From positions 9,644 through 73,643 of the forward strand of contig JBAXLH010000003.1 of the NCBI GenBank assembly GCA_037134875.1: a DNA stretch of 64,000 bases, written 5' to 3'. Below the pieces are notes generated by a model, which worked only from the letters and a program-made list of their open reading frames with translations, did no database searches and had not been told where the DNA came from. Origin of the DNA: a bacterium. Lineage in GTDB: Bacteria; Patescibacteriota; Minisyncoccia; Phycocordibacterales; DATDWN01. The position numbers were made by a program, and so were the translations under genes. Shown piece by piece: positions 36,895-37,657 of the stretch. Each line of letters starts with the position of its first letter. Within the stretch, counting starts at the first letter, position 1.

Positions 36895-36966
36895 GCTCTC
36901 GTAGCTCAATGGATAGAGTAGGGCTCTTCTAAGGCCTTGATGTTGGTTCGATTCCAACCGAGAGCA
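36895..36966 (+). tRNA. tRNA-Arg (anticodon UCU)
   Basis: Acceptor GCUCUCG/CGAGAGC; anticodon loop CUUCUAA; T-arm GUUGG-UUCGAUU-CCAAC. Confidence 0.85.
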
Positions 36967-36979
36967 CAAAATTGACGAA
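36954..36979 (+). repeat. Direct repeat A, copy 1 (26 bp: tRNA-Arg 3' end plus 12-nt flank, ccaaccgagagcacaaaattgacgaa)
   Basis: Identical to 37087..37112. Confidence 0.9.
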
Positions 36980-37086
36980 GTTAATTTTTGATCGTGGTTG
37001 GAATCGAACCGGGAAGGGGTCGGGAAACGGGAGTTTCCCGTGGAGGAAGGATTGGGAAAACCGTGGGTTTTCCAGGAGTGAGATAT
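36980..37086. other. 107-bp insert between direct repeats A. Two strong hairpins (cgggaaac/gtttcccg; ggaaaacc/ggttttcc) and an inverted copy of a tRNA T-arm (ggttggaatcgaacc).
   Basis: Seen in the sequence. No ORF support. Confidence 0.5.
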
Positions 37087-37112
37087 CCAACCGAGAGCAC
37101 AAAATTGACGAA
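37087..37112 (+). repeat. Direct repeat A, copy 2
   Basis: Identical 26-mer. Confidence 0.9.
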
Positions 37113-37124
37113 ACATATCTCATT

Positions 37125-37143
37125 TGTGGGCATGGGGAGATTT
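37125..37143 (-). repeat. Direct repeat B, copy 1 (19 bp duplicating the 3' end of minus-strand tRNA-Leu-CAG: tgtgggcatggggagattt)
   Basis: Identical to 37323..37341. Confidence 0.9.
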
Positions 37144-37182
37144 TCCTCCGAATTTTTTATCGTCGTCACTCAAAAAATTCTA

Positions 37183-37263
37183 GGCGCCAGATTGGCGACA
37201 AGCTCTGCTGAGCTCGTAAACCGCCAATCTGTTCAAATCTCCATCCGCACAGCGATGCTGTGC
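37183..37263. ncRNA. Candidate structured RNA E1, a paralog of E2 (shared 30-nt core gcgacaagctctgctgagctcgtaaaccgc at 37195..37224)
   Basis: The flanking helices cagattggcg/cgccaatctg and gcacagc/gctgtgc are replaced in E2 by different but still complementary sequences. Strand unresolved. Confidence 0.45.
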
Positions 37264-37322
37264 TTGTGTTGCAAAACAAAATTACAGTAATTTAATAAAC
37301 TTAACTTTTCAAGATTTTTTTC

Positions 37323-37341
37323 TGTGGGCATGGGGAGATTT
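37323..37341 (-). repeat. Direct repeat B, copy 2 (within the tRNA-Leu-CAG 3' end)
   Basis: Identical 19-mer. Confidence 0.9.
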
Positions 37342-37406
37342 GAACTCCCAATCCTTTCGGAATACGCTCCTGAAGCGTACGCGTATACCAATTCCGCCAC
37401 ATGCCC
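37325..37406 (-). tRNA. tRNA-Leu (anticodon CAG), class II
   Basis: Acceptor GGGCAUG/CAUGCCC; anticodon loop UUCAGGA; long variable arm; T-arm GGGAG-UUCAAAU-CUCCC. Confidence 0.85.
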
Positions 37407-37424
37407 AAGCAGATTTATATTAAA

Positions 37425-37452
37425 ACAAAAACTGGATATTATCCAGTTTTTG
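37425..37452. terminator. Bidirectional hairpin terminator (aaaaactggatattatccagttttt)
   Basis: Near-perfect palindrome flanked by A and T runs. Confidence 0.6.
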
Positions 37453-37455
37453 CTT

Positions 37456-37475
37456 TTGTGCGAGGTAGAGGACTC
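37456..37475 (-). repeat. Direct repeat C, copy 1 (20 bp duplicating the 3' end of minus-strand tRNA-Val: ttgtgcgaggtagaggactc)
   Basis: Identical to 37638..37657. Confidence 0.9.
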
Positions 37476-37514
37476 TCCCTCGAAATTTTCAATTCCGTCA
37501 AATTGAAAATTTCT

Positions 37515-37595
37515 GGGCACCGGACTTGCGACAAGCTCTGCTGAGCTCGTAAACCGCAAGTCCGTTCGAAGTCCTCATGCAGAGCGTTGCTCTGC
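37515..37595. ncRNA. Candidate structured RNA E2 (shared 30-nt core at 37528..37557; flanking helices cggacttgcg/cgcaagtccg and gcagagc/gctctgc)
   Basis: Paralog of E1 with compensatory helix changes. A hairpin terminator lies at 37609..37636. Confidence 0.45.
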
Positions 37596-37608
37596 TTACC
37601 CCACACAA

Positions 37609-37636
37609 TAAAAAATCGCCTTTCAGCGATTTTTTA
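37609..37636. terminator. Bidirectional terminator hairpin (atcgc-ctttca-gcgat flanked by A and T runs), immediately 3' of tRNA-Val
   Basis: Hairpin plus U-run on both strands. Confidence 0.6.
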
Positions 37637-37637
37637 A

Positions 37638-37657
37638 TTGTGCGAGGTAGAGGACTC
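37638..37657 (-). repeat. Direct repeat C, copy 2 (the tRNA-Val 3' end)
   Basis: Identical 20-mer. Confidence 0.9.

Follow-up and report, generated by a model that had tools for sequence, protein, structure and literature searches.

Short inserts behind tRNA genes of a patescibacterial genome are probable modules for small structured RNAs closed by copies of the tRNA 3′ end

Repeats that run from the T-loop to the end of a tRNA gene are the classical identity block of tRNA-integrating elements, and the locus described here raises the question of what three inserts of only 107 to 179 bp are that are bracketed by repeats of this kind. The window is the whole stretch of 64,000 nucleotides that was analyzed, from contig JBAXLH010000003.1, and all coordinates refer to it unless a locus is named. 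All three inserts sit on the strand of their own tRNA, and the host genes, each identified by ARAGORN and Rfam, and the exact direct repeats of their 3′ ends are as follows:

36895-36967, plus strand: tRNA-Arg(UCU), host of unit A
37324-37406, minus strand: tRNA-Leu(CAG), host of unit E1
37640-37713, minus strand: tRNA-Val(UAC), host of unit E2
36953-36979 and 37086-37112: direct repeat of the tRNA-Arg(UCU) 3′ end, 27 nt
37125-37143 and 37323-37341: direct repeat of the tRNA-Leu(CAG) 3′ end, 19 nt
37456-37475 and 37638-37657: direct repeat of the tRNA-Val(UAC) 3′ end, 20 nt

A first-pass annotation had reported direct repeats beside all three inserts, and these are confirmed as exact matches of 27, 19, and 20 nt; the tRNA-Arg repeat, described there as 26 bp at 36954/37087, is real but has the length and positions given above. 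Each repeat starts inside the T-loop and continues through the T-stem 3′ strand and the acceptor 3′ strand into 2 to 13 nt of trailer, with copy 1 behind tRNA-Arg(UCU) comprising the last 15 nt of the tRNA and 12 nt of trailer, and the two copies are spaced 133 to 198 nt apart. By our own estimate, an exact 19-mer repeat would be expected by chance ~(1200^2/2)/4^19 = 3e-6 times in 1.2 kb, and the remaining five tRNAs of the window have no 3′-end repeat of this type. The only tRNA segments duplicated in the inserts are the repeat, an inverted copy of the T-arm, and one 11-mer common to insert A and tRNA-Leu(CAG); a tRNA pseudogene or partial tandem tRNA duplication was rejected, as the core is common to unrelated tRNAs and only these segments match. 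Open reading frames overlapping the inserts run across tRNA genes and are not credible. Rfam 15 covariance models, searched against the units of the window and of locus L012, returned the tRNAs and chance-level matches only, with no match of a unit to a ribozyme, riboswitch, intron, tmRNA, or other described RNA family.

Units E1 and E2 are homologous over the whole insert, with 85% identity across 65 nt, in agreement with the earlier claim that two of the three inserts carry a homologous structured core. Their parts, in tRNA sense, are as follows:

37247-37263, minus strand: E1 small hairpin P0 (GCACAGC-AUC-GCUGUGC), a conserved 5′ element of E-type units
37123-37246, minus strand: E1 core and closing helix, covariance-model match of 113 bits
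37232-37242, minus strand: 5′ strand of the E1 closing helix, a copy of the T-stem 5′ strand plus the reverse complement of the T-loop
37188-37231, minus strand: E1 hairpin hp1
37145-37184, minus strand: E1 hairpin hp2
37125-37143, minus strand: E1 direct repeat
37610-37635, minus strand: E2 proximal terminator-like hairpin
37597-37608, minus strand: E2 inverted acceptor copy, its pairing read from the sequence
37579-37595, minus strand: E2 small hairpin P0 (GCAGAGC-AAC-GCUCUGC)
37455-37579, minus strand: E2 core and closing helix, covariance-model match of 116 bits
37565-37576, minus strand: 5′ strand of the E2 closing helix
37521-37564, minus strand: E2 hairpin hp1
37477-37517, minus strand: E2 hairpin hp2
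37456-37475, minus strand: E2 direct repeat
37422-37455, minus strand: terminator-like hairpin directly 3′ of the E2 direct repeat, the probable end of the tRNA-Val/E2 transcription unit

The E core forms a three-way junction whose hairpins are a bulged one of 18 bp and a long, A/U-rich one. Both E units fold better on the minus strand, with minimum free energies of −49.0 kcal/mol for E1 (z −5.4; opposite strand z −2.7) and −59.1 kcal/mol for E2 (z −7.4), and the covariance model scores 113 to 116 bits on this strand versus 12 to 15 bits on the plus strand. In E2, the inverted acceptor copy pairs with the repeat at 12 of 12 positions, two of them G-U. A terminator-like hairpin lies between tRNA-Val and E2, so that co-transcription is not assured, and a search for a convincing promoter for the units found none. 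The junction was compared by eye with hammerhead, hairpin, HDV-like, and twister ribozymes, with group I introns (internal guide, P10 helix), and with archaeal bulge-helix-bulge introns; none fits, and Rfam agrees. A k-turn-like arrangement is possible at this junction.

Unit A has a different core, with two hairpins, and is organized as follows:

36985-37008, plus strand: 5′ closing strand of unit A, which copies the 3′ part of tRNA-Arg in inverted form (inverted repeat of 26 nt, 85%)
37009-37085, plus strand: core of unit A ("A-type"), including two hairpins of 8 bp, at 37021-37040 and 37055-37073
37086-37112, plus strand: copy 2 of the direct repeat, 27 nt, forming the 3′ closing strand

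Within this unit, GGTTGGAATCGAA is the exact reverse complement of the tRNA-Arg T-loop and T-stem 3′ strand, and the acceptor part of the inverted copy is degenerate. A homologue lies behind tRNA-Met in locus L120 (positions 3187-3295; E = 1e-7), where the flanks match that tRNA-Met. Membership of unit A in an "F1" family (AGCCGGA...GGGGUCG) was considered and rejected, as the F1 alignment is too heterogeneous for a usable consensus; for this reason, and given the L120 homologue, unit A is kept as its own type.

The units share a common architecture. In tRNA sense, the tRNA gene is followed by an inverted T-arm copy, a conserved core, and the direct repeat; in some units the inverted T-arm copy is itself preceded by a terminator-like hairpin and by the acceptor 3′ strand in inverted copy, and E-type units have P0. 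The inverted copy of the local T-stem 3′ strand and T-loop ends in GAA, and the repeat combines T-loop nucleotides ~57-60 with the 3′ strands of the T-stem and the acceptor and a few bases of the trailer. The inverted T-arm copy pairs with the direct repeat, and the RNA fold is thus closed by a helix with the tRNA's own T-stem sequence; in E2 the acceptor stem is copied too. In units with an inverted acceptor copy, its pairing extends through the discriminator as well as the trailer, which is unlike the expected substrate of tRNA-processing enzymes. Unit size is 120 to 240 bp, repeat length varies from 9 to 30 nt, and units are also stacked in tandem. Short variants without the terminator and inverted acceptor occur behind tRNA-Val in L091 and tRNA-Trp in L092, and the acceptor part of the repeat is decayed where its partner strand is absent (L093, L095, L098, and L105). 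Some palindromes are perfect over 23 bp (L087), and palindromic terminators of a similar kind are present at empty sites too (L134). The repeat extends ~12-13 nt into the trailer in unit A and 12 nt in L096, and these extensions have no evident RNA-level role, which makes the repeats look like a footprint of unit formation.

The first-pass annotation had further proposed a recurring cargo that might be found beside other tRNA 3′ ends, and a search of metagenomes placed the E core behind many other tRNAs. An E-core pattern scan gave 42 loci, and the 47 E-type hits analyzed include five from the window and L091. A same-strand tRNA ends 25 to 199 nt upstream of the core in 33 of the 47 hits (at 25 to 89 nt in all but one), a repeat of the local tRNA 3′ end is present in most, and the tRNAs that precede the core have 22 different anticodons and serve 13 amino acids, with the core always in tRNA sense. 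The 5′ flank of the E units matches the local T-loop, in reverse complement, at the level of single bases, and 99% identical cores, with arms that differ, follow tRNA-Ile and tRNA-Ser. Grouped by identity, the cores fall neatly into neither genomes nor tRNAs, and they fit neither strictly vertical inheritance at each tRNA nor a spread confined to single genomes. The E pattern has no matches in viral contigs, and an exact 22-mer of the E loop has none among GTDB genomes (one per species), in which the lineage is poorly represented (best UppS identity, 52%).

RNAalifold predicts 33 pairs from 36 E-type sequences, with compensatory changes in 26 of them, and 94.4% of cells are paired; double-change cells number 262, whereas shuffles give 82 and slid controls no more than 104, and the closing helix (helix 1) has double changes in all five of its pairs. 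The balance of G-U over A-C favors the tRNA-sense strand, the ratio being 43:19 when the pattern-fixed pair is left out and 12:2 within the inverted acceptor, and the core also has many invariant unpaired bases. Part of this E-core conservation is by construction, because the metagenome set was gathered with a pattern that has some fixed positions, including an invariant G-U pair, but that pair is also present in all five independently found copies (E1, E2, L087, and two in L091). Judged from these comparisons, the core shared by E1 and E2 represents a genuine RNA family. The suggestion that the inserts are scars of excised or deleted elements is rejected, since they are intact RNA structures with covariation.

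Units of this kind are also present in related Patescibacteria (CPR), where 13 of 56 tRNAs have one, versus none in the mirrored control; this sample consists of loci chosen by their UppS gene, with the window itself left out. At least three core families, including further ones on the same scaffold, are found behind many tRNA species, and the tRNA genes with units are mostly without an encoded CCA. Empty sites, which the first-pass annotation had expected in relatives, were looked for and found, with orthologous tRNAs filled or empty patchily among relatives that are distant (62 to 74% UppS identity), and the units are therefore not fixed pseudogene remnants. No empty allele was found in the same strain: seven contigs have an identical UppS protein, and the five loci compared are all identical where covered, two of them covering only the last 118 nt of the tRNA region. 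The non-CPR loci compared had only one tRNA, such that absence there carries no weight. Literature searches turned up no reports of such units in Patescibacteria.

We consider it probable that the three inserts are tRNA-linked modules for predicted small structured RNAs, with the architecture known from RtT/RttR of Escherichia coli. By analogy with RttR, the RNA would be made within, or just behind, the tRNA transcript, and the copied tRNA 3′ end would provide a tRNA-like 3′ end for RNA processing and stability. Since the repeat both closes the RNA fold and looks like a trace of formation, it can be read as a working part of the RNA and as a footprint of origin. Recombination between repeat copies would delete units or generate tandem arrays, and new units or cores may reach other tRNAs by copying or recombination anchored on the universal T-loop sequence. 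Several formation models were worked through on paper: an integrase, staggered-cut transposition, target-primed reverse transcription, fold-back priming at the terminator, a replication U-turn, and double-strand-break repair or homing all account for the direct repeat, but each requires extra steps for an inverted copy matching each tRNA; the U-turn model fails additionally because the proximal and distal terminators are unrelated. If the module reading is correct, RNAs of this class take their T-arm sequence, and in some cases that of the acceptor stem, from the tRNA gene in front of them; the units occupy about a quarter of the sampled Patescibacteria tRNA loci, with several core families and turnover at orthologous sites, and would include conserved three-way-junction RNAs in organisms with minimal genomes. 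Short tRNA 3′-end repeats are commonly taken for integrase scars in island mapping, which would be wrong here.

An origin as miniature non-autonomous integrative elements, in which a tyrosine integrase from elsewhere recombines a small circle with the tRNA T-loop and the repeats are attL and attR, is unlikely, although several features fit it. The attL/attR footprint recognized in the first-pass annotation holds insofar as the repeats begin in the T-loop and reach or just pass the tRNA end; the patchy distribution at orthologous tRNAs, the tandem stacking, and the ~13 nt of trailer in the insert A repeat are also consistent with integration, and the window encodes both a tyrosine integrase and a large serine recombinase at a distance of ~13-16 kb. 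However, a site-specific integrase would not place one core family at 22 anticodons with very different repeats, the repeat length is too variable (9 to 30 nt), and the inverted target copy present in every unit is left unexplained; we also consider a duplex circle of 133 to 198 bp to be mechanically unfavorable. Mobilization in trans by an integrase, also proposed in the first-pass annotation, is not supported, as no link of the units to any integrase was found. Recombinases like those of the window are absent from nearly all other loci: a search of limited sensitivity covered 62 Patescibacteria loci (475 kb), and outside the window it gave matches at just three, two of them to the serine recombinase and the third, a weak one, to the integrase. 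The E pattern, as noted, has no matches in viral contigs.

It is conceivable, but no more probable than such integration, that the units are ORF-less mobile RNA-encoding elements of a new class, able to settle behind any tRNA by means of a built-in, re-writable guide complementary to the universal T-loop and the local T-stem, with the target segment copied once inverted and once direct and with RtT as a relic. Were this so, it would be a tRNA-directed insertion mechanism without a known counterpart. The related view that they are SINE-like or ribozyme/intron-like, moving through an RNA intermediate with a reverse transcriptase supplied in trans, is doubtful. It draws on a 12-nt guide-like segment complementary to tRNA positions 54-65, which spans the T-loop 56/57 junction and so both sides of the repeat boundary, on flanking duplications that vary in length as in target-primed retroelements, on the near-identical cores at different tRNAs, and on the many invariant unpaired bases of the E core; reverse transcriptases are common in these bacteria. 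Against it, no Rfam ribozyme or intron family matches, and the trailers are without CCA, so that the mature tRNA is not the template. Simple target-primed reverse transcription would, by our reasoning, also copy the guide of the donor and not that of the target.

Recombination sites acting at the DNA level, at which the palindrome folds in single-stranded DNA into a copy of the target duplex for a structure-specific recombinase, as in integron attC and CTX phage attP, are very unlikely. The order of direct copy, hairpin, inverted copy, cargo, and direct copy is, by our derivation, the expected trace of single-strand hairpin integration, and the perfect 23-bp palindromes also fit, but the short variants are without terminator and inverted acceptor, empty sites have similar palindromic terminators, inverted-copy mismatches preserve RNA pairing on one strand (12 G-U versus 2), and no candidate recombinase is known. 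Least probable is that the units are functionless by-products of slippage or unequal crossing-over that partially duplicated tRNAs and terminators, which could account for the tandem arrays (by crossing-over between repeats) and for the decay of acceptor repeats without a partner strand, but is largely refuted already by covariation, as the cores bear no relation to the local tRNA, are conserved at many tRNAs and in many genomes, and have compensatory changes in every helix, and no tRNA segment is duplicated beyond those listed above.

Islands, prophages, and integrative elements inserted at tRNAs share with the units a T-loop-to-3′-end repeat, an intact tRNA on one side, presence/absence variation, and tandem stacking, but are 5 to 100 kb in size versus 0.12 to 0.24 kb; the units, in contrast, are without an integrase, have one family at 22 anticodons, and contain an inverted target copy and covarying RNA. 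MITEs and cis-mobilizable att-flanked elements are likewise small, ORF-less, and repeated within a genome, with inverted terminal sequences. However, the "terminal inverted repeats" of the units are copied from each target, and the flanking duplication is long and variable; assignment as a MITE was rejected, as the units lack terminal inverted repeats of their own and a fixed target duplication, the arms following the local tRNA and the duplication ranging from 9 to 30 nt. Several RNAs derive from tRNA precursors or look-alikes, including the 3′ external transcribed spacer of E. coli leuZ, plant mitochondrial t-elements, and mascRNA. These resemble the units in a tRNA-adjacent origin or a partial tRNA shape used as a processing signal, but are without exact and inverted T-arm copies and are not families repeated across many tRNAs.

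The closest architectural parallel is E. coli RtT/RttR (Rfam RF00391), the 178-bp repeats of the tyrT-tyrV operon, the function of which is still unclear (10.1101/2024.07.17.603846; PMC3318445). Like the units, RtT lies directly behind a tRNA on the same strand, and each 178-bp repeat ends in 19 nt of the tRNA-Tyr 3′ end starting inside the T-loop. At its start, an inverted copy (GGGGAAGGAU) is paired with the repeat and so closes the fold, as in the window units; the GAGAA junction after this copy is also present in some CPR units, and both RtT and the CPR units form tandem arrays. In the E. coli annotation, the rttR RNA runs from the tRNA trailer to the repeat end, where the CCA of the repeated tRNA-Tyr segment forms its 3′ terminus. 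RF00391 has no match in window positions 36700-37900 at E values up to 10 or in L012 at E values up to 1, and the link to RtT is therefore architectural only. To our knowledge, RtT is found only behind tRNA-Tyr in enterobacteria. Its core differs from those of the CPR units, which, unlike RtT, have at least three core families and occur behind many tRNA species, the genes of which mostly lack an encoded CCA. If the units are modules for structured RNAs, as we favor, RtT, rather than a one-operon curiosity, would be the earliest described member of a broad class.

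Sequence comparison places the three small inserts downstream of tRNA-Arg(UCU), tRNA-Leu(CAG), and tRNA-Val(UAC) in recurring, covarying families of predicted RNA structures on the tRNA-sense strand, with a closing helix built from inverted and direct copies of the local tRNA T-arm. These three of the window's eight tRNA genes lie within a 950-bp gene-free stretch, flanked by a pilus-type gene cluster on one side and uppS on the other.

36895-36967, + strand, tRNA-Arg(UCU), host of insert A
37324-37406, - strand, tRNA-Leu(CAG), host of insert E1
37640-37713, - strand, tRNA-Val(UAC), host of insert E2
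36953 and 37086, exact 27-nt direct repeat, insert A
37125 and 37323, exact 19-nt direct repeat, insert E1
37456 and 37638, exact 20-nt direct repeat, insert E2

An exact repeat search bears out, within one base, the repeats that the first-pass annotation had reported at these tRNA 3' ends. One copy is in each case the tRNA 3' end, running from the T-loop interior through the T-stem and acceptor 3' strands into 2 to 13 nt of trailer, and the second copy lies 133 to 198 nt onward in the direction of its own tRNA; no comparable 3'-end repeat was found at the remaining five tRNAs of the window. Two Logan contigs of the same strain (L003 and L005) both end inside tRNA-Val, 118 nt upstream of uppS, probably because assembly broke at the repeats or at tRNA sequence common to strains.

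All three inserts share a common plan in the tRNA sense, namely, an inverted T-arm copy, a core, and the direct repeat. At its 5' closing strand, each insert repeats the host tRNA's T-stem 3' strand and T-loop in inverted orientation.

E1, 5' closing strand GGAGAUUUGAA, host T-loop UUCAAAU
E2, 5' closing strand GAGGACUUCGAA
Insert A, 5' closing strand GGUUGGAAUCGAA

This inverted copy pairs with the direct repeat, and the predicted RNA is thus closed by a helix of the tRNA's own T-stem sequence. E1 and E2 are alignable over their whole length, both have a small hairpin (P0) preceding the closing strand, and their core is a three-way junction comprising a bulged hairpin (10-bp stem, GUUU bulge, and 8-bp stem with AGCA loop) and a long A/U-rich hairpin, a structure that single-sequence folding reproduces. 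The minus-strand folds have energies of -59.1 kcal/mol (z -7.4) for E2 and -49.0 kcal/mol (z -5.4) for E1, versus -51.0 and -37.7 kcal/mol, respectively, on the plus strand. Farther upstream, E2 carries a terminator-like hairpin together with an inverted copy of the acceptor (37597-37608), the latter pairing with the repeat at 12 of 12 positions, two of them as G-U. Terminator hairpin stems reaching into the tRNA acceptor 3' strand are also present at tRNA-Val(UAC) of the compared locus L134 (c766-840) and after the distal repeats of L006 and L012; as such terminators occur even at unit-free sites, the inverted acceptor copy may be a clade-wide tRNA-terminator feature and not part of the unit. 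Units A and E1 are convergent with a gap of only 12 nt, and on the plus strand at 37134-37150, 22 nt past the end of unit A, the E1 distal repeat and the next bases form a small hairpin followed by a U run (GGGGAGAUUUUCCUC CGAAUUUUUU), which could act as a terminator of a unit A transcript.

The first-pass annotation had also regarded E1 and E2 as homologous, recurring cargo, which agrees with their full-length alignment and with the same core lying behind many other tRNAs. A degenerate pattern, derived from the five E copies known at that stage, located 42 further loci in JGI metagenomes, while viral contigs gave no match. Among the 47 analyzed hits, which include the window and L091 copies, 33 have a same-strand tRNA end 25 to 199 nt upstream of the core (25 to 89 nt in all but one), and the others belong to tandem arrays as second units or are located at contig ends; the host tRNAs represent 22 different anticodons and 13 amino acids. 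Position for position, the sequence 5' of the core follows the local T-loop in reverse complement (for example, AUUUGAA, ACUUGAA, GAUCGAA, AAUCGAA, and AUUCGAA), and the 3' flank consists of T-loop nucleotides 57 to 60 followed by the local T-stem and acceptor strand, with the repeat starting inside the T-loop in nearly all cases. RNAalifold analysis of 36 E sequences shows compensatory changes in 26 of 33 predicted pairs, with 94.4% of cells paired in the named structure and 262 double-change cells versus 82 after shuffling and at most 104 with slid partners; the metagenome copies being pattern-gathered, conservation at pattern positions is built in by the search. Several observations favor the tRNA-sense strand: G-U is more frequent than A-C in the E set (43:19, excluding one pair fixed by the search pattern) and in the inverted acceptor copies (12:2), each of the five independently found E copies has an ACG/UGU G-U pair, and the sole window matches to a covariance model of the E alignment are the minus-strand E2 (116 bits) and E1 (113 bits).

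The source organism belongs to the Patescibacteria (CPR), and its best UppS match in a one-genome-per-species set is 52% identical, the named neighbors being Yonath-, Kaiser-, Zambryski-, and Paceibacteria. A script requiring only a downstream repeat of the tRNA 3' end recovered the same layout in relatives.

L006, behind tRNA-His
L008 and L046, behind tRNA-Leu(GAG)
L010, behind tRNA-Arg(UCU)
L012, behind three tRNAs

L012, a 12.7-kb Paceibacterota MAG, has units of a third core family at four of its six tRNA genes, the fourth being behind tRNA-Arg(GCG) with a decayed repeat; three of the cores are mutually 90 to 95% identical, and the arms fit the respective local tRNAs. In closer relatives retrieved through UppS homologues (62 to 74% identity), the E core is found behind tRNA-Leu(GAG) of L087 and behind both tRNA-Leu(GAG) and tRNA-Val(UAC) of L091; no complete unit is present at the corresponding tRNAs of L086, L134, and L135, and in L086 repeat-less sequences following tRNA-Val and tRNA-Arg(GCG) look like remnants of another core type. 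Across loci chosen through UppS and not through the elements (the window itself excepted), a repeat of at least 11 nt lies 60 to 320 nt downstream of 13 of 56 tRNAs, versus none in a mirrored control. Orthologous sites, which the first-pass annotation had proposed comparing, are patchily either filled or without a complete unit: the tRNA-Val(UAC) site is filled in 2 of 11 genomes, and the tRNA-Leu(GAG) site is empty in the window and filled in five relatives, with two E subtypes (L087 and L091) or another family (L012, L008, and L046), the differing core types indicating turnover at one and the same site. A free-standing LAGLIDADG-type open reading frame (39767-40444, + strand) ends 8 nt before the unit-free tRNA-Leu(GAG) of the window (40453-40535).

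The other cores are also recurrent. A homologue of insert A (nhmmer E = 1e-7; core identity ∼85%) lies in L120 behind tRNA-Met, with a 5' flank fitting that tRNA's T-arm. An 11-mer, AAGGATTGGGA, is common to insert A (37047-37057) and the variable-arm/T-stem region of tRNA-Leu(CAG), the L120 homologue reading AAGGTTTGGGA, and is either a chance match or a trace of a tRNA-derived A core. The third family (AGCCGGA...GAGGCGGGGUCG...CGUGACC and variants) is heterogeneous, its alignment being too poor to yield a consensus, and is found in the equivalent place behind tRNAs for His, Leu, Arg, Tyr, and Ser. On the minus strand of L131, ∼200 nt ending 33 nt upstream of an intact tRNA-Ala(UGC) gene comprise the first 24 nt of tRNA-Ala, a hairpin, a third-family core (AAGACCGGAG...GGUGGGGUCGG...GUGACC), and an anticodon-arm fragment; this core is embedded in a partial tRNA copy near position 26, and the T-loop is thus not the sole context. 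Tandem arrays, some of mixed core types, are present in L102, L114, L130, and L012, and no empty scaffold of closing arms without a core was seen among 116 tRNAs. Cores sort cleanly neither by genome nor by tRNA. In metagenome Ga0172380, the E cores of L098 (tRNA-Ile GAU) and L132 (tRNA-Ser UGA) share 99% identity across a 95-nt block that stops precisely at the T-loop-derived sequences, and their closing arms and P0 hairpins differ. This indicates that cores move, or undergo conversion, between tRNA loci, with these sequences as boundaries. As judged from these comparisons, orthologous sites gain and lose units, and arrays are formed.

The RNA would be made together with the tRNA or just after it, with the copied tRNA end perhaps providing a tRNA-like 3' end, by analogy with RttR, and recombination between repeats may delete or multiply units. 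RNA structure alone is insufficient for the repeat, which extends 13 nt into the trailer in insert A, is 30 nt long in L096, and has a decayed acceptor part where the pairing partner is absent (L093, L095, L098, and L105). The repeat is thus also a footprint of formation, as had been suspected at first pass.

A less likely reading of the units is a mobile RNA whose internal guide spans the 56/57 junction, for which geometry is the only positive evidence. DNA-hairpin recombination sites are a weakened reading, as the palindrome is missing from short variants and terminators of similar palindromic form are seen at empty sites (L134). The first-pass interpretation of the repeats as att sites of integrase-inserted elements accounts for their position and for the patchy distribution, but it fails on the breadth of targets (22 anticodons), the varying repeat length, the unit size, the inverted copy that it leaves unexplained, and the scarcity of recombinases resembling the window's two among 62 Patescibacteria loci. 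Inert duplication is largely ruled out by the covariation. Elsewhere in the window, 20637-24053 looks like a genuine integrated element. No repeat of the tRNA-Ser(UGA) 3' end was found within the window.

20637-20724, tRNA-Ser(UGA), 3' end overlapped by the large serine recombinase gene
20712-22298 (-), large serine recombinase, 528 aa
22523-23626 (-), tyrosine integrase
23664-24053 (-), HTH protein

No Rfam 15 family matches E, A, or the third family, and the closest parallel to the RNA-structure reading is the Escherichia coli RtT RNA, with which the units share the same architecture. Three 178-bp units follow E. coli tyrV, each ending in the last 19 nt of tRNA-Tyr from the T-loop on; the closure of the Rfam RF00391 consensus (GgGaaGGAU...AUCCuuCcC) forms by pairing of an inverted copy with the repeat, and the annotated rttR RNA 3' end is the CCA of the repeat. 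The likeness extends to the closing helix being followed by a GAGAA junction, which several CPR units show instead of an exact complement to the T-loop. The role of rttR is still described as unknown (10.1101/2024.07.17.603846; PMC3318445), and under stress the tyrT-rttR region is reported to be enriched in exonuclease-resistant DNA (10.1101/2024.07.17.603846). By this analogy the units are most likely RtT-like tRNA-linked RNAs, a known but obscure kind that is far more widespread and diverse here than in the known case.
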